64,000 bases of DNA from Nitrospirota bacterium. GTDB taxonomy: Bacteria > Nitrospirota > UBA9217. Position numbers and translations under genes: made by a program. Positions 34,567 to 54,431 of this stretch are shown piece by piece (within the stretch, counting starts at the first letter, position 1; each line of letters opens with the position of its first letter). The stretch is taken from the NCBI GenBank assembly GCA_029858565.1, contig JAOUEV010000009.1:10853-74852 (forward strand). Reading direction: 5' to 3'. The notes under the pieces are model-generated. The model made no database searches, had not been told where the DNA came from, and saw only the letters and a list, made by a program, of their open reading frames with translations.

Positions 34567-35241
34567 ATGAAGAGAAAGACCATACGCATTGCCGGCAGTG
34601 ATTCTGTTGCCATGGAAATGAACGACCCTGTCGGTCTCACCTGCGGCGTCGCGGGCTGCGACGCGAACTGTTGCAAGAACGGGCCGCACATCATCCTGAA
34701 TCCCTATGAGATTGCGCTTATCTGCTCGGCGAGCGGCCTCTCCTACGAAGATCTGCTCGATGTGGTGGAAACGGACCGTGTGAACGGATTTCCGCTCGTG
34801 ATGCTGCCACGCGATCCGGCCTGTCATTTCTGGACAGAGCAGGGGTGCAGCATCTATGCTGCCCGACCCCTTGCCTGCAGGCTCTTTCCCCTGGGCAGGG
34901 TTTTTGACCATGGCCGGTCCTTCTTCGTCACGCCGGACCGGAACCTATGCAAAGGGCTGGCGCAGGCGCCCAGTCGTACTCTGGCCCAATATCTTGACGA
35001 GCAGGACACGAAAACGCAGATCACCATGGCCGACCGGTGGATCGAGTTCGTCACTGAGATGGAGCAGCAATCCTTTCCGGATAAGCCGGTGACCTCGGTC
35101 GCGTTCCATATGCTCGTATACAGTCCGGATACGCCCCCATCTTCCGATTCTGCGCAATCACCCGAATCTCCGGAAGATCGGTTCCTTCTTCGCATGGACA
35201 CCGCGAGACGCAAGCTTCCCCAATTTTTACGGTCCTCTTGA
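34567..35241 (+). CDS. YkgJ-family cysteine-cluster protein
   Basis: CxxxxCxxxCC and CHF...CSIYAARPLACRLFP motifs. Confidence 0.88.
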   Translation: MKRKTIRIAGSDSVAMEMNDPVGLTCGVAGCDANCCKNGPHIILNPYEIALICSASGLSYEDLLDVVETDRVNGFPLVMLPRDPACHFWTEQGCSIYAARPLACRLFPLGRVFDHGRSFFVTPDRNLCKGLAQAPSRTLAQYLDEQDTKTQITMADRWIEFVTEMEQQSFPDKPVTSVAFHMLVYSPDTPPSSDSAQSPESPEDRFLLRMDTARRKLPQFLRSS

Positions 35242-35289
35242 GCAAGAAGGTCTCTTGACAGGCCTTCCATGCCTCTATAATATAGACCT

Positions 35290-37785
35290 ATGTGGGGACA
35301 GTATATCCTATTGAGCGCTTACCGCCGAACGTTTCCGGCTGCGATTACCGCCTGCCTGGTCTGTTCAACGGCGCTTGTGCTCGGAACAGGATGCGCGACC
35401 ACGGCTGTTAACACTCCGCCCCCTGCCACCGCCATATATCATCATATGGCGTCCCATACAGCAGCGACCGCTGCCTCCACGCAGTCCCCAATATCCATGC
35501 CCGAGATCGCCGATCCCGGAACAGGTTTTCGCGCTGCCATGGATGCCTTTGCCGCAGGCGACCACGAACGGGCCGCGCTTTTGTGCCGCGGTATGATGGA
35601 ACGCTATCCGGAAAGCCCCTGGAAGCGCCGCTCGCACTTCCTGCTGGGGCGGACATTCCTTGCCCGGAACATGACCGCTGATGCGGAAGAGGCCCTGCAG
35701 CGCGTGGCGGCGGAATATCCTGATTTTGCAGACTACGCCTTGTTCCTGCTGGCAGAGCATCTGCGGACCCGGCAGCGGCCTGCGGATGCGGCGGCGATCT
35801 GGCATCGGCTGGCCACCCATTATCCGTCGAGCCTGCTCGTTCCCCGGGCGCTCACGCTGCGGGCGCAGGCGTTGATGGAAGCGGGCCTGCACAAGGAAGC
35901 AGTATCGGCCTTTGAGCAGGTCCTGCGCGAATACCCCCGGTCGGACGCCGCGGCCGATGCCGCGTTCGGGCTCGGGACCGCGCGCGTCGGCGCCGCGGAC
36001 CTGGCCGGAGCCGCACAGGCGTTCCAACTGGTGAAGATCAAGTATCCTTCTCCGGAGCGGGACCAGACAGCGGACCGCGCGATCGCCCGACTGGCGGATT
36101 ACGGGATCGAGGCGCCGCGGATGACCGCAGAAGAACTTCTCGAGCGTGCGCGGAACCTCTATCGTTCAAGTCAGTTCGATCGCGCGCAGATCTCCTACCT
36201 GGCTGTCCTGGACCGCGATCCGGCGCATTCCCAAAAGGCTGAGATACTGCTCCGGAGCGGCATTGCCCTTTACAATATCGGGAGGCGCGTGGACTCTGCC
36301 GCAGTGCTGGAGCGGCTGCTGAAGGCGAAACTGCCGGACTGCAGATGCGCCGAAGCACTGCACTGGCTCGGCAAATCCTATAGCAGGCTTGGTATGCGCG
36401 AAGAGGCCGTGCGCACCTTTCTCCGGCTCACGCGGGACCATCCGGACAGCGACTGGGCCGATGATGCGCTCTATCTTGCCGGGAACGTGTACCGCGACGC
36501 AGGGGACATGAATAAGGCGCTGGTCTACTACCGGAGATTGACTGCGGAATATCCGGAAAGTTCTTTTGCCGACAGCGCCCTCTGGTGGGAAGGCTGGAAC
36601 GCCTACAGTGCCGGTGAATACTCAAAGTCCATCAGCGTTCTGCGCGAGATCGTACGCCGCTATCCACGGTCCTTTCTCGTGAACCAGGCGCTGTACTGGA
36701 TGGGACGGTCCGCGGACGCCTCGGGTGACCAGGCGGCCGCTGCTGCCCACTATCGCCGCGTTCTCAGCCACGGGCCGTATACCTATTACGGAACGCTTGC
36801 CGCGCAGCGTCTTGAACGGTCGTTTTCCCTGATGCCCGCTTCTCTCGACCTGCACGATGGGGCGGAGGAGCAGGATTCGGATCAGACGGAGGATGGGGAA
36901 GTTGACGATGACGGGCTTCTGCCCCAAGGAAGTCCTCCTGCATGGACCGAGGACGCCATTGAAGCGCTGTCGAGCAATCCCTCGTACCGCCGGACCCTCG
37001 AACTGATGTATCTCGGCATGAAGAAAGAGGCTGCTGCTGAACTCTGGTCGCTCCTGGACCTGATGCCCGGCAGGTCGGGCGCGGTCCTGGGACTTTCCAA
37101 GGCCTTTTTCGAACTGGGCGACTATCACAGTTCCATCATCATCGTCCTGCGGAACTTTGAGCGGCTTCTGGAGAGGCCTTCGGAGCGGTTGCCCGAGGAC
37201 CTCTGGCGGCTTGCTTATCCCCAGGGTTTCTGGCCGAACATTACGTCAAGTGCGAAGAAATACGGACTGGACCCCTATTTTGTCGCTGCCATCATCCGTG
37301 AGGAGAGCCAATTCAGGCCTGACGCGGTCTCTCCGGCAGGCGCCCGCGGTGTCATGCAGGTCATGCCGTCGACCGGAGAATGGATCGCACGGAATACGGG
37401 TATCTCCGGGTTCGAGCGCTCCCGGCTGTTCGAGGCCGAGACGAACATCAGTCTCGGTGCCTGGTATCTCGCACATCTCATGAAGAAGTTCAACGGGAGC
37501 CTGACCCTCGTGAGTGCGTCCTATAATGCAGGACCGGAGCCGGTGATGGCGTGGTCAGCAAGACCGGGGGGAACTGCTGATCCCGCGGTGTTCGTGGAAA
37601 TGATCCCCTATGCAGAGACGCGGGGGTACGTAAAAAAGGTCCTCAGGAACTACGCTGAATACCGCAGACTCTACGGTACTGCCGGCCAGGCCATGCTCTC
37701 TCCTGCCGGTTATCAGGGCAAGGCCGGCGTTCCGTCCGCGCTGCACGAGAATGCTCGGTTGTGCAAGGCGGGGGGCTGCCCATGA
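35290..37785 (+). CDS. TPR-containing soluble lytic transglycosylase (Slt-like, probable lipoprotein)
   Basis: Many TPRs; C-terminal SLT motifs IIREESQF, GARGVMQVMP, ASYNAG, ETRGYVKKV. Confidence 0.9.
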   Translation: MWGQYILLSAYRRTFPAAITACLVCSTALVLGTGCATTAVNTPPPATAIYHHMASHTAATAASTQSPISMPEIADPGTGFRAAMDAFAAGDHERAALLCRGMMERYPESPWKRRSHFLLGRTFLARNMTADAEEALQRVAAEYPDFADYALFLLAEHLRTRQRPADAAAIWHRLATHYPSSLLVPRALTLRAQALMEAGLHKEAVSAFEQVLREYPRSDAAADAAFGLGTARVGAADLAGAAQAFQLVKIKYPSPERDQTADRAIARLADYGIEAPRMTAEELLERARNLYRSSQFDRAQISYLAVLDRDPAHSQKAEILLRSGIALYNIGRRVDSAAVLERLLKAKLPDCRCAEALHWLGKSYSRLGMREEAVRTFLRLTRDHPDSDWADDALYLAGNVYRDAGDMNKALVYYRRLTAEYPESSFADSALWWEGWNAYSAGEYSKSISVLREIVRRYPRSFLVNQALYWMGRSADASGDQAAAAAHYRRVLSHGPYTYYGTLAAQRLERSFSLMPASLDLHDGAEEQDSDQTEDGEVDDDGLLPQGSPPAWTEDAIEALSSNPSYRRTLELMYLGMKKEAAAELWSLLDLMPGRSGAVLGLSKAFFELGDYHSSIIIVLRNFERLLERPSERLPEDLWRLAYPQGFWPNITSSAKKYGLDPYFVAAIIREESQFRPDAVSPAGARGVMQVMPSTGEWIARNTGISGFERSRLFEAETNISLGAWYLAHLMKKFNGSLTLVSASYNAGPEPVMAWSARPGGTADPAVFVEMIPYAETRGYVKKVLRNYAEYRRLYGTAGQAMLSPAGYQGKAGVPSALHENARLCKAGGCP

Positions 37786-38075
37786 TCGGCGTCCGGCAGG
37801 GACGGGGAGGGGCAGGCGGAGGCGATCTGCGAGCGAGGCTCGCGGAAGTGGAGCAGCGGGTCAAGAACATTGTCCTGGACAATCGGCAGCTGCGTTCCCG
37901 CGTACAGGAACTTGAGCAGGAACTGGGCCGTGCGCAGGCGGAACTTCAGGGCCTGCAGGTCGCAAAGAAGAAGCACAGTGATGTCCGCGGCCGGCTCGAG
38001 CGGATACTTGCTGTTATCGAGTCCCTGAAAAGCCGGGACAGGGAAGATAACCCGGAATCCACGCCGCAAGAATAG
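37782..38075 (+). CDS. Small coiled-coil protein (ZapB-like)
   Basis: Heptad coiled coil, 97 aa, start overlaps the upstream stop. Confidence 0.6.
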   Translation: MIGVRQGRGGAGGGDLRARLAEVEQRVKNIVLDNRQLRSRVQELEQELGRAQAELQGLQVAKKKHSDVRGRLERILAVIESLKSRDREDNPESTPQE

Positions 38076-38303
38076 CATTGCATCGCTCTGCAGTATTATG
38101 CAAAAAAAGGATATCAAGGCCAAGTGTTTTGAATTACGGCAATTCTAATAGAAAAAAGTGTGGCAAAAATGTCAATATGGTTCCATTTAGGTGAAAATAA
38201 AAGAGAATTGGCCAATGCGTATATTACGGAATTACACCTTTACAGCAGGCCACTCAGTGGCATATACTCGTAGCTAGTAAATTCTGTACAGAGGATATTG
38301 GTT

Positions 38304-39314
38304 ATGAACGATAATAATACCGGTTCCCAGGAAAATGCGTTGGCTGAGTTGAGTAAGCACACTGGAGCGTTTGTTAAAAAACTGCTGCAGATTGAGCAAA
38401 GCATCAATCAAAAAGCTGATGAGTCCGAGATGACTGCTCAGATCGTTGAAGCGGCCGGTATTATGGAAAAACAGTGTGATGAGTTTGAAAGGGCTGTAGC
38501 ATATGATAAAGACATAATTAAGAGCGCCCAGGCTCGGTTCAGAGCCGATACAGACATCATTTTCCTGAAAAGCTATTTTTTGCTGCGAGCCCGCACGTGG
38601 CCGGCAGGGAATGCAGGAGATCACGAAACAATTGAGTCAATATATAGAAATGCACCACTATCGTCTGGAATCGGACGTATTCTGGATCAGCTTTTCCTGA
38701 AATCAACGCTTGCAATGGCCGTAAAAGAGAGAAAGGAAGTCATAAAGCAATTACTCAAGCGGGAAATAAAAAAAAGAAACGAACCCAAAATGCTCAATGT
38801 GGCAAGCGGTTCCTGTCGCGAACTTGTGGAAATAGCGCAAGATATAAAAACATCCAACACCCATCTCATATGTGTGGACATCAGTTCTCAAGCCCTTGAA
38901 GCCGCTTCCATGCGTTTATCATACGCCAACCTCGGGACTGACCAGGTGCAATTCAGAAAATACAATGCGCTAAAAATGATCAGCTCCGATCGAAACATCA
39001 AGGAATTCGGGAAGCAGGATATCATTTACAGCATAGGGCTTTTTGACTATCTGAGCGATGACATGTTGGTGCGCCTGTTGAGCGCTTTATATGATTGCCT
39101 TGAGCCTGGCGGCGTCCTAATAACATCCTACAAAGACAAGGAACATTACAAGTTGTTCGATTATCACTGGCTCACTGATTGGACAAGCTTCTACCAGCGC
39201 TCAAAAGAGCACGTGCGTCAGATATATGCGTCAACGAATATTCCAGCAACGAATGTTGCCTATGAAAAAATGAATTTGCCGGCTATCTACTTTATTCTCG
39301 CGACAAAACCATAA
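38304..39314 (+). CDS. Class I SAM-dependent methyltransferase, PhcB-like
   Basis: RARTWPAGNAGDHETIESIY block, LNVASGSCRE motif I, IYSIGLFDYL motif IV. Confidence 0.72.
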   Translation: MNDNNTGSQENALAELSKHTGAFVKKLLQIEQSINQKADESEMTAQIVEAAGIMEKQCDEFERAVAYDKDIIKSAQARFRADTDIIFLKSYFLLRARTWPAGNAGDHETIESIYRNAPLSSGIGRILDQLFLKSTLAMAVKERKEVIKQLLKREIKKRNEPKMLNVASGSCRELVEIAQDIKTSNTHLICVDISSQALEAASMRLSYANLGTDQVQFRKYNALKMISSDRNIKEFGKQDIIYSIGLFDYLSDDMLVRLLSALYDCLEPGGVLITSYKDKEHYKLFDYHWLTDWTSFYQRSKEHVRQIYASTNIPATNVAYEKMNLPAIYFILATKP

Positions 39315-39335
39315 ATTTCAAACGAAAGAACATTG

Positions 39336-41501
39336 ATGATGCAACAACTCAATAAAGCCGCTTCCAGAACTCCCCGTGGTCAATACATGCGGGAGCAAAT
39401 GGAAATTAAATTACAGTATTGGACCGGCAATGTGATGATTATGGGGATCATCTTGTTTCCGCTCATATCAATTGCCGACTATTTCCGGACGAAAAGCGAG
39501 TTCGCCACGTTCGCGGGGTACAGAGCCGCCGTAACGCTGATATTGATACTTACCTACTATCTGAACAAGATCAAAAGAAGTCTTCAATATCAGTATTCGC
39601 TTATTATCATTGGCACCATCGCATCGGCGGTTACCATAGAAGCAATGATACTTTCCCTGGGTGGCCACCAATCCTCATATTATGCAGGGATGAGTTTGCT
39701 GGTGATCGGAGTGATAGGGCTGATTCCCTATGACATATATGTGGCTGTTCTGATGGCGGTAATCATCTACGCAATATACCTGGTGCCGATCCTCGTGCTG
39801 GATCCGATCACGAACAGCGCATTATTTGTGGAAAACAACGTATTCTTGTTGTCCACCATTGTCATTACATCAACGTGGCGCTATATCTTTCAGCGAATTA
39901 TGCTGAATGAAATGAGTTTGCAGTACGAGCTCACGGAGGATCGAGATAAACTCGAACGCGAGGTTCAGCAGAGAACTCAGGACCTGTATCAGTCGGAGCT
40001 TTGGCACCGCTCGCTGTTCGAGAATGCGACTGACGGGATTATGGTCCTCGACAAAAGCGGCATCATTGTGAACGTCAATGCAAAAGCATGCGCAATCTAC
40101 GGTTTCCCGCAGGAAGCCATGATAGGAACGCAAGTTGCGCTGCTGGCTGCCGAAGAAAAGGACCAAGTGGCAAATCGCCTTCACAAAATACTTGACGGCG
40201 AGACCATGTACTACGAGGCTGAGCACTACCGCCGGGACGGGAAGCGCATTGCGGTCGAGATCAGCGCGAAGGCGATCAAACTGGGAAACGAGACCTACAT
40301 CCAGTCATTCCAGCGCGATGTTACGGAAAAGAAAAAGATCCAGGACCATCTGGTCCAGTCCCAGAAGATGGAATCCATCGGCATACTGGCCGGAGGCATT
40401 GCCCACGACTTCAACAACGTTCTGACCGCCATCCTCGGCTTTATCGGATCGATCATGAAAGAGAACATCCAGAGCGAGAAGATACTGAAACGTCTGCGGG
40501 TCATGGAGCGGACCGCTCAGAATGCCTCGCGGATGGTATCACAGCTCCTGGGTTTCGCGCGGAAGAGCGAGATGAAGTTCGTTCCCCTGAACCTCCGGGA
40601 CATCATTCTGGACACCTCAAAGCTCCTCGAAGGGTTTATGGAAAAAACGGTAAGACTCGACCTGCAGATCGACCGAAATCTGCCGATCATCAAGGGGGAT
40701 ATCGCTCAACTGGAGCAGGTATTGATGAACCTCGTCATGAATGCGCGCGACGCCATGTCCGGAGGCGGGATTGTGACGATCAAGGCGGAAGCGGTCCGGG
40801 CGGGCGCCGGCACTCCGCACATCCCTCCGTATATTCCCGACGGCGAGTATGTCGAGCTGACCGTATCCGACACGGGTCGCGGCATCCCCGAGAACATCAA
40901 GGACAAGATCTTCGAACCCTTTTTCACGACCAAGGACCGGGGAAAAGGGACCGGACTCGGACTTTCCATGGTGTACGGCTCCGTGACCGACCACCAAGGG
41001 TATATCACGGTCAGAAGCAAGGTAAACAAAGGAACGACATTCACCATCTACTTCCCCGTATGCGGAGAAGAACTGCCGACAGCGGCGGTGGAGAGCGGTC
41101 ACCCGGTCCCGGCGAAGCTTGCGGGGAGCGAGACTGTACTGGTCGTGGACGATGACGAGAACGTGCTGACCTTTGTCAAGGACACGCTCGAGTCCAACGG
41201 CTACCGGGTTCTGGCCACCAGCAGTCCCATGAATGCAATCGATCTGTTCACCAAGATGCACGAGGAGATCGACCTGGTGATCACCGATGTGATCATGCCG
41301 CTCATCGACGGCGGCGAGCTCATGCGGCAGGTCCGGGCGGTCAAGCCGGATGTCAAGGTGCTCACCATATCGGCCTACCGCGATTTCGGCGACCGTGCGG
41401 ACGATATTCGCTCAACTCCGTTCCTCCAGAAACCCTTCAACGGCTCCCATCTTCTCGCGACGATACGGAATATGCTCGACACCGGAAAAGTATCCGCCTA
41501 G
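39336..41501 (+). CDS. Membrane hybrid histidine kinase (multi-TM, PAS, HisKA, HATPase, REC)
   Basis: About six TM helices, PAS, AHDFNN H-box, NARDA, DTGRGI, GTGLGL, receiver DD...D...KP. Confidence 0.93.
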   Translation: MMQQLNKAASRTPRGQYMREQMEIKLQYWTGNVMIMGIILFPLISIADYFRTKSEFATFAGYRAAVTLILILTYYLNKIKRSLQYQYSLIIIGTIASAVTIEAMILSLGGHQSSYYAGMSLLVIGVIGLIPYDIYVAVLMAVIIYAIYLVPILVLDPITNSALFVENNVFLLSTIVITSTWRYIFQRIMLNEMSLQYELTEDRDKLEREVQQRTQDLYQSELWHRSLFENATDGIMVLDKSGIIVNVNAKACAIYGFPQEAMIGTQVALLAAEEKDQVANRLHKILDGETMYYEAEHYRRDGKRIAVEISAKAIKLGNETYIQSFQRDVTEKKKIQDHLVQSQKMESIGILAGGIAHDFNNVLTAILGFIGSIMKENIQSEKILKRLRVMERTAQNASRMVSQLLGFARKSEMKFVPLNLRDIILDTSKLLEGFMEKTVRLDLQIDRNLPIIKGDIAQLEQVLMNLVMNARDAMSGGGIVTIKAEAVRAGAGTPHIPPYIPDGEYVELTVSDTGRGIPENIKDKIFEPFFTTKDRGKGTGLGLSMVYGSVTDHQGYITVRSKVNKGTTFTIYFPVCGEELPTAAVESGHPVPAKLAGSETVLVVDDDENVLTFVKDTLESNGYRVLATSSPMNAIDLFTKMHEEIDLVITDVIMPLIDGGELMRQVRAVKPDVKVLTISAYRDFGDRADDIRSTPFLQKPFNGSHLLATIRNMLDTGKVSA

Positions 41502-41620: not shown

Positions 41621-42616
<996 letters not shown>

Positions 42617-42818: not shown

Positions 42819-44246
42819 ATGAGCGCAAATATCAAAGACACGCAAAGAATGATCGAAGAAGTCCTGGAAGCCTACCCCGAGAAGTCGAAAAAGGACCGGG
42901 CCAAGCACCTTGCTGCGAACGATCCCACAGGGCAGTGCAGCGCCTGCCAGGTGAAGTCGAACATCAAGTCCCGGCCCGGGGTCATGACCGTGCGCGGCTG
43001 CGCGTACGCGGGCGCAAAGGGCGTGGTCTGGGGACCGGTGAAGGACCAGATCACGATCAGTCACGGTCCTGTGGGCTGCGGCCAGTATTCCTGGTGGTCA
43101 CGCAGGAATTACTATAACGGCCAGACCGGCATAGACGCCTTCGGCACGATGCATATCACCACCGACTTTCAGGAGAAGAACATCGTTTATGGCGGAGACA
43201 AGGGGCTGGATGCGGCAATCAAGGAGCTGCATGGCCTGTTTCCGCTCGGCCGGGGTATCGGCATCCTGTCCGAATGCCCTGTAGGCCTTATCGGCGACGA
43301 TATCGAGGCGGTCTCGAAGCGTGTGGCAAAGGAGATCAATATCCCGATCGTTCCGGTGCGGTGCGAAGGGTTCCGCGGTGTTTCCCAGTCCCTGGGCCAC
43401 CATATCGCGAACGACACGATCCGCGACTACGTGCTTGGCAAGGGTACGCTTGAAAAGACCACTCCCTACGACGTGAACCTGATCGGCGACTACAATATCG
43501 GCGGAGATGCCTGGGCGTCGCGCAAGATCCTCGAAGAGATGGGCTTGCGCGTGATCGCCCAGTACACCGGCGACTCGACGATCAACGAGATCGGGATAGC
43601 GACCAAGGCGAAGCTGAACCTGATCCACTGCTACCGGTCCATGAACTACATCTGCCGTCACATGGAAGAGACCTACGGTATACCGTGGATGGAGTTCAAC
43701 TTCTTCGGACCCACGAAGACGATAGACAGCATCAGGAAGATCGCGGCCAAGTTCGACGAGAAGATCCAGAAGAACGCCGAGGCGGTGATCGCGAAATATC
43801 AGCCGCTTATGGACAAGGTGGTTGAGCAGTATCGGCCGAAGTTGGAAGGCAAGAAAGTGATGCTCTATGTCGGCGGTCTGCGGCCGCGCCATACCATCGG
43901 CGCCTATGAGGATCTTGGTATGGAAGTCGTGGCCTCAGGTTATGAGTTCGGCCATGGCGACGATTACAAGCGAACCTATCCTGAGATGAAGGAAGGCGCG
44001 GTGATCATGGATGACGCGACGCTGTACGAGCTTGAGGAGTTCACCCGAAGGCTCAAGCCCGACATGGTGGGTTCGGGCATCAAGGAAAAGTATTCCTACC
44101 ACAAGCTCGGGGTGCCGTTCAGGCAGATGCATTCCTGGGATTATTCGGGGCCTTATCACGGATTCGACGGGTTCCCGGTCTTCGCGCGGGACATGGATAT
44201 GACCGTGAACAGCCCGACGTGGGGATTAATCCGAAGGAAGAAGTAG
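42819..44246 (+). CDS. nifD: Nitrogenase MoFe protein alpha chain
   Basis: P-cluster Cys (RGCAY, VGCGQ, SECPV); FeMo-co ligands IHCYRS and MHSWDY. Confidence 0.98.
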
Positions 44247-44409: not shown

Positions 44410-45918
44410 ATGAAGATCAGAGACCATAGCGAGTTGTTCAAACAGCAGGATTACCAGGAGCAATTCCAACGCAAGAAGGAATTCGAGAACGGCTGGCCCG
44501 CGGAGAAGGTGAAGGAGGTCTCCGAGTGGACCAAGACCAAGGAGTACCAGGAGCTGAACTTCAAGCGGGAGAATATCAAGATCAATCCCGCGAAGGCCTG
44601 CCAGCCCCTGGGAGCGGTGTTCTGCGCATCAGGATTCGCCGGCGCCATGCCTTTTGTGCAGGGAGCGCAGGGATGTGTTGCCTATTTCCGCAGCCATCTT
44701 TCCCGCCACTTCAAGGAGCCTTTTGCCGCCATTTCCACGTCCATGACCGAGGACGCGGCGGTCTTCGGCGGCCTGAACAACATGCTGGAGGGCCTGGAGA
44801 ACGCCCATACGTTGTATAAACCGAAGATGATAGCGGTCTCCACGACCTGCATGGCCGAGGTGATCGGCGATGATCTGAACGCCTACATCAAGACCGCGAA
44901 GGAGAAAGGCGTCATACCGCAGGACCTTCCGGTGCCTTTCGCGCATACCCCGAGCTTTGTGGGCTCCCACATCGTGGGCTACGATAACATGATGAAGGGC
45001 ATACTAAAGACACTTTCGGCGGGAAAGAAAGGCGAATCAAACGGGAAAGTGAACATTATCCCCGGATTCGACACCTACACGGGCGATTATCACGAGATCA
45101 AGCGTCTGATGGGCTTGATGGGAGTAGAGGCCACGGTGCTTGCCGATGTGAGCGACACCTTTGATTCTCCCAACACCGGTGAATACAAGCTTTACCCCGG
45201 AGGCACGCCGCTCGATGCCGCAATGGACGCGGTGAACGCCGTCGGATCGATCGCGCTTCAGAGCTATTCCACGGCAAAGACCATGGATTTCATTGAGAAG
45301 GAATGGGGCCATCAAAAAAGGCTGTCCATAACCCCTATCGGCGTAAGAAATACCGATAAGTTCTTTGAAGAACTGAGCAAGCTTACCGGCAAGGCAATGC
45401 CGGCTGCAATCGAGGCAGAACGGGGCAGGGCTGTTGATGCTATGGTGGATTCGCACCCCTATGTTCACGGCAAACGCTTTGCCCTGGTTGGCGATCCGGA
45501 CATGCTGCTCGGCATGATCAGCCTGATCATGGAAATGGGCGGCGAGCCCGTGCATGTGGTCTGCACGAACGGGGACAAGAAATTCGAGGCCGAAGCAAAG
45601 GAACTGCTCGCATCGAGTCCCTTTGGCGCCAATGCCACGGTATACGCGGGCAAGGACATGTGGCACCTCCGGTCGCTCCTGTTCACGGACCCGGTGGACC
45701 TTCTGGTCGGGAACTCCTATGCAAAGTTCCTGAAGCAGGATACGGGAACGCCCCTGGTGCGGTTCGGTTTCCCGATCTTCGACCGGCACCATCTGCACCG
45801 TCAGCCGGTGATCGGGTATCAGGGCGTGATCAATCTTGTGACCATGCTGGTGAATACGGCATTGGAGGAGCTGGACAAGAAGACCGAAGGGTCGGCGAGC
45901 TTTGATGTGATCAGATAA
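44410..45918 (+). CDS. nifK: Nitrogenase MoFe protein beta chain
   Basis: NPAKACQPLG, QGCVAYFR, TTCMAEVIGDD, HTPSFVGSH, GFPIFDRHH. Confidence 0.98.
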   Translation: MKIRDHSELFKQQDYQEQFQRKKEFENGWPAEKVKEVSEWTKTKEYQELNFKRENIKINPAKACQPLGAVFCASGFAGAMPFVQGAQGCVAYFRSHLSRHFKEPFAAISTSMTEDAAVFGGLNNMLEGLENAHTLYKPKMIAVSTTCMAEVIGDDLNAYIKTAKEKGVIPQDLPVPFAHTPSFVGSHIVGYDNMMKGILKTLSAGKKGESNGKVNIIPGFDTYTGDYHEIKRLMGLMGVEATVLADVSDTFDSPNTGEYKLYPGGTPLDAAMDAVNAVGSIALQSYSTAKTMDFIEKEWGHQKRLSITPIGVRNTDKFFEELSKLTGKAMPAAIEAERGRAVDAMVDSHPYVHGKRFALVGDPDMLLGMISLIMEMGGEPVHVVCTNGDKKFEAEAKELLASSPFGANATVYAGKDMWHLRSLLFTDPVDLLVGNSYAKFLKQDTGTPLVRFGFPIFDRHHLHRQPVIGYQGVINLVTMLVNTALEELDKKTEGSASFDVIR

Positions 45919-45921
45919 TTC

Positions 45922-45979
45922 GTAGGGGCGGCCCCGCGTGGCCGCCCTATGCAGGGCAACCACATGGGGTTGCCCCTAC
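45922..45979. repeat. GTAG-family REP doublet, copy 2
   Basis: GTAGGGGCGGCCCCGCGTGGCCGCCC ... GGGCAACCACATGGGGTTGCCCCTAC. Confidence 0.85.
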
Positions 45980-45991
45980 GGAGAGAATCTT

Positions 45992-48622
45992 ATGACCACG
46001 GCAATCGACAAATACACGGCAGACGGATGCGCCACCGACGACAAGCACAAGGTCTGTCGTTCCCGGGGCGGAGAATCCTGCGCTTTCGACGGTGCGATGA
46101 TCGTGCTCCAGCCGATAAAGGACGCTGCACACGTGGTCCACGGTCCTATCGCCTGCTGCGGCAATTCATGGGAGGGCAGGGGCACACTGTCGCGTTCCGT
46201 GAATGCGGCCGAGTTCCCCCTGGTCCGCATGGGCTTCACGACCGACATGACGGAGATTGACATTGTTTACGGAGCTGAAGAAAAGCTCTACCGGGGGATA
46301 CTGAAGACCGCGGCCCGGGTGAAGCCAAAGGCCCTGTTTGTCCACGCAACCTGTGTGAGCGGTCTGATCGGCGAAGACATAAACGCTGTCTGCAAAAGGG
46401 CGCAGCTTGAACTCGGCATCCCGGTGATCCCGGTCAATGCTCCGGGTTTCACCGGTCCCAAGAACCTGGGCAACCGGATCGCCGGGGAGGTGCTCCTGGA
46501 CCATGTCATCGGTACTGACGAGCCTCCTGTGCAAACGCACTTCGACATCAACCTTATCGGCGAATACAATATCGCCGGCGACCTTTGGCTGGTCGAGCCG
46601 CTACTGACAGCCGCGGGTATTCATGTCCTGTCAAGGATCACCGGAGACGCGACCTTTGAAGAGATCACCTGGGCGCACCGGGCAAAGCTTAATGTGGTGG
46701 TCTGCGGCAGAGCGCTGATCAACGTTGCCCGGGAGATGGAACGGAGATATGGCATTCCTTTTGTGGAAGTGTCGTTCTTCGGCAGCACCGAAATTGCCAA
46801 GGCACTACGGGCTATCGGCAACAAACTGCAGGAGTCGGGATGCGCGGGCCTCCTCGATGTCGTAGAAACGCATATTAAGGTCGCTGAAAAGAAGCTCCAG
46901 GAAGAACTAAAGCCTTACAGACACTTGCGCGGCACGAAGGCTGTGCTTTACACGGGCGGAGTAAAAAGCTGGTCGTTCATATCGGCGCTCCGGGACCTGG
47001 GTATCGAGGTCGTTGCCGTGGGAACGAAGAAGAGCACGTTCGAGGACGAGGAGAAAATGAAAGAACTTCTCGGGCCGCAGGCGCCTCTCATTGAGGACGT
47101 TACCCCGAAGAACCTGCTGCGGCTCTTGAAGGAACACAAAGCCGATATGCTGATCGCGGGAGGAAGGAATCAGTATCTGGCTGTCAAGGAAGGGTATCCT
47201 TTTGTTGATGTGAACCAGGAGCGCCATACTGCCTACGCGGGATATGATGGACTGGTCAATCTGGCGGAGCAGATCAGCAATGGCATGCGGTTCTACAAAG
47301 GCAGTGCGAAGTGCGAAGTGCGGAGTGTGGATTACGGAGCAAAGACGACCACGGCCAAAGAACTAAATTCCGCACTCAGAATCAATCCCCTGAAGCATTC
47401 TCCCGCCATTGGTGCTGCCATGGCGATCCAGGGCATCCACAACGCGCTGCCGATTATCCATGGAGCGCAGGGTTGCGGATTTCTCGGCAAGGTATTGTTG
47501 ACGAAACACTTTCGGGAGCCTGTCGCGCTTGCCACATCCAAGCTTTTTGTCGAAGACGTGGTGATGGGCAGCGAGGAGCGGTTGATCAATACCGTGAAGG
47601 ATTTCATGGAAAAGAGTTCGCCTGACCTGATCGCCGTGCTTACCTCGGGGCTTTCGGAAGTGAAAGGGGACGATGTTCAAGCAGTTGTCAGGAAGCAGGA
47701 AGCAGAAGCAGGAAGTAACGGAAGGAATACGTCGATCATTCATGTATCGACACCGGACTATGACGGAGGACTTGAATCGGGCTACGCAAAGGCAGTAGAG
47801 GCAGCTCTGGAAATTGCGGTGCGCGAAGTGCGGAGCGCGGAGTCGGATCAAATCAACGTTCTAGCGGGTTCACACCTGACGCCCGGAGATATCAACGAGC
47901 TGCGTGACATTGTCGAGTCCTTCGGACTGCGGCCGATCATTCTTCCTGATCTGTCGTCGCTCGACGGCAGCAGGCAAGGCTTCTCGGGTCTTTCCAAGGG
48001 AGGAACACAGTTAACGGACATCCGGTCCATGGGTTCTTCACTCCGGACGTTCGCGATCGGCAGAAGCATGGAGCGGGCGGCCGGAATTCTCCGGGACCGC
48101 TACGGTGTCGCCGCTGTTCTTCTTGATTCTGTAGCCGGACTGGAAGATACCGACAGGTTGCTGCATGAACTGAGCCTTGTCAGCGGCCGTCGGATACCGG
48201 AACGTTACCAGCGGCAGCGCAGGATGCTTGTGGACGGAGTGCGGGACGGACAGTTCTATTTCGGATCAAAGAGGGTCTGCCTGGCGCTGGAACCGGATCA
48301 CTCCTTGCAGATGTCCCGGTGGCTCAGGGAGACAGGGGCGACAACGGCATTGAGCATCATTCCAACACTGAGCAACGCAGCGGATCACATCGAAGCGGAG
48401 CATGTGGAGATCGGAGACCTCTTCTCGATCCAGGGAAAATACGATCTGATCATCGCGAATTCTCATGCTCAGGAAAGCGCGGAGCAAATGAGGATCCCGC
48501 TCTATGAAGCGGGGTTTCCAGTCTTTAAATCGCTGGGATATGCGCAAAAGGCGATGGTCGGGTATCGAGGAGCACTTGCCATGGTGAATGAGATCGGGAG
48601 TTTGTTAATGCGGGGGCATTAA
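45992..48622 (+). CDS. nifEN: Fused FeMo-cofactor scaffold NifE-NifN
   Basis: NifE half (CAFDGA, HGPIAC, NQERHTAYAGY) then NifN half (NPLKHS, HGAQGC, HFREP) in one ORF. Confidence 0.95.
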   Translation: MTTAIDKYTADGCATDDKHKVCRSRGGESCAFDGAMIVLQPIKDAAHVVHGPIACCGNSWEGRGTLSRSVNAAEFPLVRMGFTTDMTEIDIVYGAEEKLYRGILKTAARVKPKALFVHATCVSGLIGEDINAVCKRAQLELGIPVIPVNAPGFTGPKNLGNRIAGEVLLDHVIGTDEPPVQTHFDINLIGEYNIAGDLWLVEPLLTAAGIHVLSRITGDATFEEITWAHRAKLNVVVCGRALINVAREMERRYGIPFVEVSFFGSTEIAKALRAIGNKLQESGCAGLLDVVETHIKVAEKKLQEELKPYRHLRGTKAVLYTGGVKSWSFISALRDLGIEVVAVGTKKSTFEDEEKMKELLGPQAPLIEDVTPKNLLRLLKEHKADMLIAGGRNQYLAVKEGYPFVDVNQERHTAYAGYDGLVNLAEQISNGMRFYKGSAKCEVRSVDYGAKTTTAKELNSALRINPLKHSPAIGAAMAIQGIHNALPIIHGAQGCGFLGKVLLTKHFREPVALATSKLFVEDVVMGSEERLINTVKDFMEKSSPDLIAVLTSGLSEVKGDDVQAVVRKQEAEAGSNGRNTSIIHVSTPDYDGGLESGYAKAVEAALEIAVREVRSAESDQINVLAGSHLTPGDINELRDIVESFGLRPIILPDLSSLDGSRQGFSGLSKGGTQLTDIRSMGSSLRTFAIGRSMERAAGILRDRYGVAAVLLDSVAGLEDTDRLLHELSLVSGRRIPERYQRQRRMLVDGVRDGQFYFGSKRVCLALEPDHSLQMSRWLRETGATTALSIIPTLSNAADHIEAEHVEIGDLFSIQGKYDLIIANSHAQESAEQMRIPLYEAGFPVFKSLGYAQKAMVGYRGALAMVNEIGSLLMRGH

Positions 48623-51032: not shown

Positions 51033-51048
51033 TGGCAGCGTAATTGCT
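51033..51048 (+). promoter_or_regulatory. Sigma54 promoter of nifB-modABC
   Basis: TGGCAGCGTAATTGCT; upstream boxes at 50945 (TGCTTAATCCTTGAGCA) and 50964. Confidence 0.85.
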
Positions 51049-52977: not shown

Positions 52978-53643
52978 ATGGAATCGTCAACCCTGTTTTC
53001 GCTCAGACTCTCCCTGCAGGTCGCGGCGGTGGCCACGATTCTCATCTTCGCCGCAGGCGTGCCGATTGCCTATCTGCTGGCCCGTGGGGTCTTTCGCGGC
53101 CGCGAGGTTGTGGATGTGCTGATCACCCTGCCGCTTGTGCTTCCTCCCACGGTAACGGGCTATCTGCTGATCGTGCTCCTGGGCAGGAACGGCATCATCG
53201 GCGGGACGCTGTACCGCTGGACAGGCTGGTCGATCATGTTCACCTGGCAGGCCGCGGTGATCGCCTCTTTCGTGGTGGCGCTGCCGCTCATGGTCAAAAC
53301 AGCCCGCGCCGCCATCGAGACCGTGGATCGGAACCTTATCGACGCATCCGCGACGCTCGGCCATTCGGAACTCTGGACCGTTGTCCGGGTAACGCTGCCG
53401 CTCGCGCAACGGGGCATTGTGGCGGGTCTGGTGCTTGCTTTTGCCCGGGCGCTTGGCGAGTTCGGCGCAACGCTCATGCTCGCGGGCAATATCCCGGGTA
53501 GGACCGATACCATGCCGATCGCCATGTATGCGGCAGCGGCCTCAGGGGATCGGTCCGGCGCCAATGTCATGGTGCTGTTGTTCACGGCCATCTCGGGAGC
53601 ATGTCTGTACGCGGCGAACCGGCTGGGAAGGAGGACCGCATAG
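52978..53643 (+). CDS. modB: Molybdate ABC transporter permease
   Basis: LPLVLPPTVTG, ARALGEFGAT. Confidence 0.95.
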   Translation: MESSTLFSLRLSLQVAAVATILIFAAGVPIAYLLARGVFRGREVVDVLITLPLVLPPTVTGYLLIVLLGRNGIIGGTLYRWTGWSIMFTWQAAVIASFVVALPLMVKTARAAIETVDRNLIDASATLGHSELWTVVRVTLPLAQRGIVAGLVLAFARALGEFGATLMLAGNIPGRTDTMPIAMYAAAASGDRSGANVMVLLFTAISGACLYAANRLGRRTA

Positions 53644-54431
53644 TGGGCCTGTCGGTCTCGATCAGCAAGAAGCTGGGAACATTCTCCCTTGACGCGGAGT
53701 GGGCCGTTGATGACGAACTCGCGGTCCTGTTCGGCTATTCGGGATCGGGCAAGTCGCTGACGCTCCGTGCCGTAGCCGGACTCCTGATACCTGACAGGGG
53801 GACGATCGAGCTGAACGGTCAGATCCTGTTCAGCGGAGATGACGGACGTGTCGTACCCACGCAACTGCGATCCATCGGGTTTGTGTTCCAGGACCTCGCT
53901 CTGTTCCCTCATATGACAGTGGAGGAAAACATCCTTTACGGCGGTCACGGAGTCAGCAGCCGGGAGCGGCAGGAGCGGTGCAGGGACATGGTGCGGCGTT
54001 TTCGGTTAACCGGTCTTGAACATCGTCGTCCCGTGGACCTTTCCGGAGGGCAACGGCAGCGGGTAGCGCTCGCACGGACGCTCATTCGGCGACCGGCGGC
54101 GCTTCTTCTTGATGAACCCTTTTCCGCACTTGATGCCCCTCTTCGGCGTGAGATGCGGGGGCTGCTCCGGGAGGTGCAGCGGGAGCTGCGCATCCCGGTC
54201 GTGCTCGTGACCCATGATCTGACGGAAGCGCTTGAGCTTGCCGACATGCTGATCCTCTATGTCGACGGCAGAGTGGAACAGTGCGCTACGCCTCGCGAAG
54301 TCGTCAAACAACCGGCATCGGGATCCGTGCGCAGGCTCATCTCACCTGAGCTTTTTCAGCACAGGGATAAGCATGACGATAACCAGGAACGAGCGGCAAG
54401 TATACTGCCTATCTGCTGTGCAGGTGCCTAG
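53643..54431 (+). CDS. modC: Molybdate ABC transporter ATPase (no TOBE domain)
   Basis: GYSGSGKS, LSGGQRQR, LLLDEPFSALD, VTHD. Confidence 0.9.
   Translation: MGLSVSISKKLGTFSLDAEWAVDDELAVLFGYSGSGKSLTLRAVAGLLIPDRGTIELNGQILFSGDDGRVVPTQLRSIGFVFQDLALFPHMTVEENILYGGHGVSSRERQERCRDMVRRFRLTGLEHRRPVDLSGGQRQRVALARTLIRRPAALLLDEPFSALDAPLRREMRGLLREVQRELRIPVVLVTHDLTEALELADMLILYVDGRVEQCATPREVVKQPASGSVRRLISPELFQHRDKHDDNQERAASILPICCAGA

Follow-up and report, generated by a model that had tools for sequence, protein, structure and literature searches.

Two adjacent genes in a 64,000-nucleotide stretch of DNA from a Nitrospirota bacterium (assembly GCA_029858565.1, contig JAOUEV010000009.1; hereafter the window) encode a methyltransferase dependent on S-adenosylmethionine (SAM) and a membrane-bound hybrid sensor histidine kinase. 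Judged by sequence comparison, both are true but distant homologues of PhcB and PhcS of the Phc quorum-sensing system of Ralstonia. There PhcB is the signal synthase, with methyl 3-hydroxypalmitate or methyl 3-hydroxymyristate as product, PhcS is the membrane sensor, and the LysR-type master regulator PhcA is under the control of the system. We regard it as probable, as the best explanation of the locus as a whole, that the pair is a small operon in its own right and specifies a signal module of the Phc type. This module exists in two forms within the same Nitrospirota family, a short one, to which the window pair belongs, and a long one with a dedicated acyl synthase.

Layout of the locus

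The methyltransferase gene lies at 38304..39314 on the + strand. Its 336-aa product was assigned to the PhcB family, as a short form, from Pfam, BLASTP, hidden Markov model (HMM) searches, alignment and a structural model. The open reading frame (ORF) as listed spans 38298-39314, opening with TTG at 38298, and the ATG at 38304 is the likely start; the 336-aa product is identical to one database protein. It contains RARTWPAGNAGDHETIESIY and SIGLFDYL, and the class I SAM methyltransferase families Methyltransf_12, Methyltransf_20 and Methyltransf_25 all score above their Pfam cut-offs.

The kinase gene follows on the same strand after a spacing of 18 bp (39333..41501) and encodes 722 residues, among them the string GGHQSSYYAGM. 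Its predicted PhcS-type sensor (39333..39977, aa 1-215) has about six transmembrane (TM) helices, counted by eye from the sequence where a crude hydropathy scan gave fewer, and includes the G-x-QS-x-YYAG block. A PAS domain comes next (40008..40331, aa 226-333, Pfam), then the kinase core (40386..41060), with HisKA at aa 352-411, the phospho-acceptor His358 and HATPase_c at aa 455-576, and finally a C-terminal receiver (REC; Pfam Response_reg) at 41136..41465 (aa 602-711); all are on the + strand. No Pfam family exceeds its threshold in the N-terminal ~210 hydrophobic residues, where MASE8 is a sub-threshold match (E 9.3), and no PhcB or PhcS model was found in NCBIfam. The sequence-only reading had described this arrangement correctly, from the marker strings of both proteins to the gap between the genes (about 20 bp, here 18) and the distance to the nifH promoter (about 220 bp, here 223).

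A candidate sigma-70-like promoter, TTTACA-18-TATACT, lies some 35 bp 5' of the methyltransferase ATG (38239..38268, + strand); its 10/12 score is a consensus match alone, in a region with 6 such sites against 4.0 expected. Further upstream, a 104-aa ORF with a predicted coiled coil (37761-38075) overlaps the end of a TPR/SLT transglycosylase gene and stops just before the AT-rich segment described below; its family matches are weak and all sub-threshold.

The methyltransferase is a distant PhcB homologue

As a reference we used a locus (L083) of Ralstonia syzygii, which belongs to the R. solanacearum species complex; in this locus a 464-aa methyltransferase precedes a 442-aa kinase. The phospho-acceptor histidine of that kinase is residue 230. 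We take the locus as phcB-phcS because this is the position published for PhcS, H230, in the available part of the source (PMC11960443). By BLASTP the window methyltransferase is 26% identical to this PhcB over 226 aa (E 2e-18), and the alignment spans both the block preceding the SAM site and GLFDYLSD.

Comparison at the level of profiles gave the same assignment. Eighty named Burkholderiales loci were collected by a scan of genome contigs with a Cupriavidus methyltransferase. An HMM of 55 Burkholderiales PhcB proteins was then run against all 15,849 ORFs of at least 70 aa in the genome. It found the window methyltransferase at E 2.7e-19 (HMM positions 184-433) as its sole significant match, the next ORF standing at 0.021, so that the search proposed in the sequence-only reading came out in favour of PhcB. 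In an alignment of 18 sequences, P100, G102, G105, D106, R143, G169, E173, D192, Y242, G245, D248 and Y249, among others, are invariant between the window protein and PhcB. The P-x-G-Y-A-G-D block that the sequence-only reading had given for PhcB-like proteins proved accurate, since P-[LM]-G-Y-A-G-D-Y is present in 55/55 of the extracted Burkholderiales PhcB proteins.

A second point of comparison came from a tblastn search of plasmids. This returned an operon on a Paraburkholderia graminis plasmid with a 468-aa methyltransferase, a 445-aa kinase and two response regulators. Its methyltransferase is 64-92% identical to the 120 proteins listed, many of them from Cupriavidus and several named PhcB by their source, and comparison with the window pair gave the same picture as the R. 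syzygii locus. The plasmid collection held no close relative of the window methyltransferase itself (17 records, all below 30% identity).

The nearest database homologues reach at most 52% identity and are mostly from Nitrospirota where the source names the organism; several bear the KEGG name of PhcB in JGI annotation. Many are PilZ-methyltransferase fusions of about 426 aa, from Nitrospirota, Thermodesulfovibrionales and Nitrospinae by their source names. These are 42-48% identical across the whole window protein and differ from it in their N-terminal PilZ domain, which the window protein does not have. The idea that the N-terminal domain of PhcB might be a divergent PilZ was not supported (hhalign probability 0.2%, no Pfam PilZ match). 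An exhaustive search of 50%-identity cluster representatives returned 3,417 at E<=0.001, of which 1,204 reach 1e-10 and 108 reach 1e-30; identity exceeds 46% in none of them.

An AlphaFold2 model built from a 58-sequence alignment has a mean predicted local distance difference test score of 92.9; in it, three N-terminal helices cap a Rossmann domain. The predicted fold fits a small-molecule class I methyltransferase. The best Foldseek match is PDB 3ocj (E 9.9e-12, TM-score 0.58-0.64, 16% identity), an uncharacterised 'possible exported protein' of Bordetella parapertussis, which is also the second-best sequence-profile match (E 2.8e-4) and gives no information on the substrate.

The kinase carries a PhcS-type sensor

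The membrane part of the kinase is related to PhcS along its whole length. Residues 18-208 align without gaps to residues 9-199 of R. syzygii PhcS by BLASTP (23% identity, E 2e-9), the YYAG block included, and the kinase cores are 30% identical (E 7e-26). An HMM of 20 PhcS TM domains matched three proteins in the genome, namely the window kinase at 1.2e-13 and, at 2.4e-12 and 1.9e-8, two paralogues. In the reverse direction, an HMM of 10 Nitrospirota TM domains was run against the 80 Burkholderiales loci (3,313 ORFs) and found 80 matches in 78 of them; R. syzygii PhcS was matched over the full domain at E 4.4e-20, and 69 of the 80 matches start directly 3' of phcB. The sensor searches, one of them called for by the sequence-only reading, agreed in both directions. 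The TM sensor of the P. graminis kinase, like that of the window, has a sub-threshold match to MASE8 (E 0.0044).

One of the paralogues (C108:7995-10214; L147:4996-7215) shares the TM-PAS-kinase-REC layout, is 42% identical and precedes an era GTPase gene. The other (C142:64498-66264; L148:5499-7265) has several PAS domains, and its locus reaches the contig end just past genes for a PAS kinase and a receiver. These two kinases could be orphan receptors for foreign signals. A 241-aa ORF 5' of the first paralogue was considered as a decayed methyltransferase and ruled out (hhalign probability 0.1%).

The pair is conserved in a short and a long form

The family sample comprised 64 Nitrospirota genomes of the same family, with the methyltransferase in 43, the sensor domain in 49 and nifH in 36. 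For the 46 near-full-length methyltransferase copies, linkage to a same-strand kinase of the PhcS type was counted by hand from coordinates. A kinase lay no more than 300 bp downstream in 13 copies, at 1.2 kb in one, where the kinase has internal stops, and at 4.3-7 kb in 21; the remaining 11 had no PhcS-type kinase on the contig and were mostly near a contig end. The pairing seen in the window is thus a conserved one, with methyltransferase and kinase linked within 7 kb in 35 of the 46 copies.

Eighteen of the 21 wide gaps were examined. All 18 contain a ketoreductase (KR), a ketosynthase (KS), a second ketosynthase and an acyl carrier protein (ACP); 17 have a match to a FabA-like dehydratase (DH) and 15 to a flavin adenine dinucleotide (FAD) oxidoreductase. 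By Pfam, genes of the same KR/KS/dehydratase/KS/ACP type are present at a further locus that is cut by a contig end (L031). These long-form operons share kinase architecture, strand and gene order with the window pair, at 36-43% identity for the methyltransferase, 32-45% for the TM region and 33-55% for the kinase core. They differ from it in the synthase genes that stand between methyltransferase and kinase, which in the window are 18 bp apart. Since a KR-KS-DH-KS-ACP cassette separates the two genes of the pair in the long form, the methyltransferase is linked with acyl chemistry, which points to an acyl substrate.

The short-form loci have none of the cassette genes between methyltransferase and kinase, and no other gene is conserved beside the short-form pair. 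The window genome carries no copy of the synthase cassette, its only related genes being housekeeping fab genes at 31-44% identity. Because a dedicated cassette is absent from this genome, the substrate would here come from general fatty-acid synthesis.

The order of genes in the long form (L027-L029, L031, L132-L146) is methyltransferase, ketoreductase, ketosynthase, FabA-like dehydratase, second ketosynthase, ACP, FAD enzyme and sensor kinase. The FAD enzyme resembles CrtI and amine oxidases, and the three loci without a FAD match have a shorter gap. Several loci show signs of turnover in the family. In one genome (G013) a second copy of the methyltransferase, itself split, stands in tandem with the first (L021:11298-12366), methyltransferase copies with internal stops occur at G060:C8 and G073:C13, and kinases with internal stops at G008:C12 and in G057. 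Outside the family, a plasmid of Pseudanabaena sp. PCC 7367 (L034) encodes, next to a Tn3 transposase, a class I methyltransferase of 24% identity, whose gene converges on those of a HAMP histidine kinase and a response regulator; this may be a further case of methyltransferase and kinase associated on mobile DNA.

A proposed lipid methyl ester channel

These data allow us to propose how the pair might work. By analogy with Phc, the methyltransferase would most likely use SAM to methyl-esterify a fatty-acid-derived carboxylate, for example a 3-hydroxy fatty acid, with the acyl substrate drawn from ordinary fatty-acid synthesis. The product would be a hydrophobic, diffusible ester. The kinase would most likely detect this methyl ester in the membrane through its PhcS-type sensor and undergo autophosphorylation at His358, and the phosphate would travel by way of the kinase's own receiver to a phosphotransfer partner. 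On balance we think it probable that the pair makes and senses a lipid methyl ester, as part of the best explanation of the locus as a whole. Of the synthase and receptor pair described in the sequence-only reading, the homology of both genes and their conserved linkage stand. From the sequences we infer a quorum-sensing system, and with it the substrate, the ester product, its release, its sensing, any cell-density function and the output.

Several observations weigh against this proposal. The first concern the methyltransferase. The window protein lacks the ~180-aa domain at the N terminus of PhcB; the alignment begins at PhcB residue ~178-207 and is preceded by ~60-87 window residues. Within the conserved block the match is partial: P, G, G and D are retained, and the two tyrosines are replaced by N103 and H107, residue types found at these positions in 1/58 and 4/58 family sequences, respectively. 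The motif loop 101-104 is also the sole low-confidence, disordered part of the structural model. No close solved structure was found by sequence or by Foldseek, and because the Foldseek matches after 3ocj are C-, O- and N-methyltransferases of many specificities, the fold does not tell which atom is methylated.

The second group concerns the kinase and its partners. PhcS joins its sensor straight to HisKA in about 442 aa; the window kinase, at 722 aa, departs from that plan with an inserted PAS domain and an added REC domain. The gene downstream of the kinase is nifH and not one for PhcR or PhcQ. A tblastn search of the genome with the presumed PhcR of R. syzygii, the ORF 3' of phcS in L083, itself without a Pfam match, found nothing, and the search for PhcQ found only generic receiver matches in the genome (29-37% identity). 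Among the relatives' loci no response regulator or histidine phosphotransfer gene is conserved beside the pair, and neither of the two further kinases with PhcS-type sensors in the genome has an adjoining methyltransferase. Finally, identity to PhcB and PhcS (23-30%) is too low for substrate and signal to be carried over from Phc with confidence.

A different use of the same chemistry has to be considered. The methyltransferase might modify an internal lipid or metabolite while the kinase monitors the membrane or the lipid pool, giving a homeostatic circuit in place of cell-cell communication. The evidence for acyl chemistry and for a membrane sensor fits such a circuit equally well, the long-form acyl synthase with its CrtI-like oxidoreductase resembles the production of specialised lipids, and the N-terminal PilZ domain of many family members suggests intracellular control by cyclic di-GMP. 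Against it stands the gene order, as autoinducer systems usually place the synthase gene directly 5' of the cognate membrane sensor kinase gene, which is the order of the window pair. In addition, the only studied members of both families are, according to the available parts of two reports, an extracellular signal synthase and its receptor (PMC13532016, PMC11960443). We therefore consider a homeostatic circuit rather unlikely and retain a secreted lipid ester signal as the preferred reading.

Base composition

The sequence-only reading had called the methyltransferase gene AT-rich, and this description holds. GC content falls to 0.42-0.47 across 38000-40000, compared with 0.56-0.68 in the flanking windows. 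GC content at third codon positions (GC3) is 0.49 in the methyltransferase, 0.60 in kinase codons 1-280, 0.77 in the rest of the kinase and 0.70-0.79 in neighbouring genes. The low-GC, low-GC3 segment thus covers the promoter region, the methyltransferase, the TM sensor and the PAS domain (38100..40190, + strand), its right edge lying approximately at kinase codon 280-300.

In a second, more elaborate account, the ~2-kb segment is a horizontally exchanged signal cassette that recombined onto a resident kinase core. It would provide a private lipid-ester channel, the unusual N/H form of the substrate-side motif would mark a different signal, and the arrival of the cassette immediately 5' of nifH would couple the channel to nitrogenase expression in this one lineage. 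We consider this account decidedly unlikely. As proof of recent transfer the low GC3 is weakened by the same bias in 10/10 loci: the methyltransferase lies below the kinase core in all 10 loci measured, which makes low GC3 a family trait, with a difference above 0.05 in nine of them, and the sensor half lies below the core by more than 0.05 in six of the 10. The bias may reflect codon usage.

Nor did we find that the methyltransferase and the TM sensor behave as one swappable unit. Over 27 pairs, without correction for phylogeny and with one locus (L139) dropped for its truncated kinase, pairwise identities of the methyltransferase correlate with those of the TM sensor at rho 0.50, the PAS domain at 0.63 and the core at 0.50, so its tie to the TM sensor is no closer than that to PAS. 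The TM sensor is out of step with both PAS (0.29) and core (0.20). All relatives stand at a similar distance from the window pair (32-57% identity) and hence no donor is visible. An exchange of domains between the window kinase and a paralogue of its own genome was ruled out, as the paralogue on C108 is evenly 42% identical to it along its length.

Relation to nitrogen fixation

The window pair stands directly before a nitrogenase gene cluster on the same strand. nifH (41777..42616) and nifD (42819-44246) belong to 90% clusters named NifH and NifD, respectively; nifK (44410-45918) and a putative fused nifE-nifN of 894 aa (45938-48622) were assigned by reading their translations. The last of these follows nifK directly and has an N-terminal half like NifE/NifD and a C-terminal half like NifN/NifK. 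nifI genes are not present between nifH and nifD in the window.

The sequence-only reading had suggested density-dependent control of N2 fixation from this adjacency, acting through a phosphorelay to a nif regulator or through read-through into nifH. The short distance speaks for it: 275 bp separate the stop of the kinase from the start codon of nifH, both genes run in one direction, and a simple scan of the interval found no terminator-like site, so that some read-through transcription is possible. Several observations speak against it. nifH has its own promoter candidate, a perfect sigma-54-type match (TGGCAT-N5-TTGCT, 41725..41740, + strand) located 223 bp past the kinase stop at 41501 and 36 bp before the nifH ATG at 41777. 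Over 48 nt, the stretch from this promoter to the ribosome-binding site shares 85% identity with the sequence in front of nifH in a genome of the same genus (G001).

The linkage was also found in this genome only. In none of the 24 other family genomes that carry both methyltransferase and nifH do the two genes lie within 100 kb on one contig, and the sole same-contig case (G065) has them about 190 kb apart. The methyltransferase loci of 12 relatives, in stretches of 4.5-20 kb, contain no nif gene, and among 22 nifH upstream regions, three of them under 1.3 kb, the sensor HMM finds a PhcS-type sensor only in that of the window. Other genes precede nifH in G020, which has the closest pair in the family, and in G001, whose nifHDK genes are 77-89% identical to those of the window, a different and unrelated kinase stands upstream. 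nifH does not track with the methyltransferase either, as it occurs in 25/43 family genomes with the methyltransferase and 11/21 without. The check on conserved linkage to nif that the sequence-only reading had proposed thus came out negative. We consider control of N2 fixation by the pair very unlikely, and the adjacency to nifH is best read as incidental. The link to nitrogen fixation, the standout feature of the window, is not supported.

The kinase core might have been left over from an ancestral kinase linked to nif that had its sensor exchanged; this was ruled out, as the kinase upstream of nifH in G001 is only 29% identical over PAS and core. In several relatives (L152 and L156 in G051 and G049; L157 and L159 in G064 and G059) large divergent genes precede nifH, a kinase-like ORF of 733-794 aa beside an ORF of 484-535 aa. 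This gene pair could be a dedicated nif regulator pair. In the window genome the best counterpart of the 484-503-aa ORF is on another contig (C82), at 58% identity.

The pattern TGGCAY-N5-TTGCW with at most one mismatch occurs 12 times in the window, where 4.5 matches are expected and a count of 12 was reached in 0/100 shuffles. With one exception the matches lie on the + strand, among them those at 51033, 54493, 55530, 56628, 60950 and 63301, downstream of nifHDK; the nif region may thus hold a succession of sigma-54 operons. On the other side of the pair, genes for a CxxCxxCC-domain protein and the TPR/SLT transglycosylase (34567-37785) are syntenic in G002, G004 and G005 (L123-L125), but the genes after them are not the same. 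At 1.3-1.5 kb beyond the syntenic genes, G004 and G005 have a weak homologue of the window gene at 53601-54431 (28-30% identity). Compared with these three genomes, the stretch that holds the pair and the nif genes may therefore have been inserted.

Comparison with known systems

That the methyltransferase instead methylates a protein, for example the kinase in the manner of CheR and so tuning sensor sensitivity, is barely credible: it would be favoured by tight genetic coupling to the kinase and by the CheR matches, weak and below threshold (E 0.001-0.005), of the two PhcB-type proteins from Burkholderiales, but CheR is not among the Pfam families of the window protein at E<=0.01, the fatty-acid-synthase-type genes between the pair in the long form favour a lipid substrate, and the product of PhcB is, in the available part of the published account, a small molecule (PMC13532016).

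A Phc-type module making a lipid ester thus remains our preferred reading, and from sequence comparison the homology of both genes and their linkage are secure. According to the available part of one paper, the phc system is intact in the genera Ralstonia and Cupriavidus only (PMC5995829), and on the same basis Phc signalling is studied only in these two. In the literature, as far as the available text of the sources goes, we found no report of PhcB-like or PhcS-like genes outside Ralstonia and Cupriavidus; the distribution in Supplementary Data 10 of PMC5995829 may bear on the range. The name PhcB is already on some homologues from annotation pipelines.

Most genomes of the Nitrospirota family thus contain altered versions of both core components of Phc. 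If the proposed chemistry is true, lipid methyl esters would be a widespread class of signal in uncultured sediment bacteria. The short form, fed by general metabolism, and the long form, with its dedicated acyl synthase, would then provide a natural series for signal structures.

In CqsA/CqsS of Vibrio and LqsA/LqsS of Legionella, the gene for an alpha-hydroxyketone synthase lies beside that for a multi-TM sensor kinase, and the autoinducer is hydrophobic and acyl-derived. The window pair resembles these systems in logic alone, as their synthase is an unrelated pyridoxal phosphate-dependent enzyme. The likeness to Phc of Ralstonia extends to the genes themselves. The order is the same, methyltransferase followed by membrane sensor kinase; the methyltransferase core is shared, together with the preceding helical region and its P-x-G-x-x-G-D and GLFDYL blocks; and the TM sensor is of equal length, aligns collinearly and has the YYAG block in common. 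The differences lie in the kinase, where the phospho-acceptor is His358 in place of His230 and PAS and receiver domains are added, in the neighbourhood, where PhcR and PhcQ are encoded downstream at the Phc locus and do not adjoin the window pair, and in the host, which for Phc is a betaproteobacterium and here is an uncultured Nitrospirota bacterium, probably from sediment.

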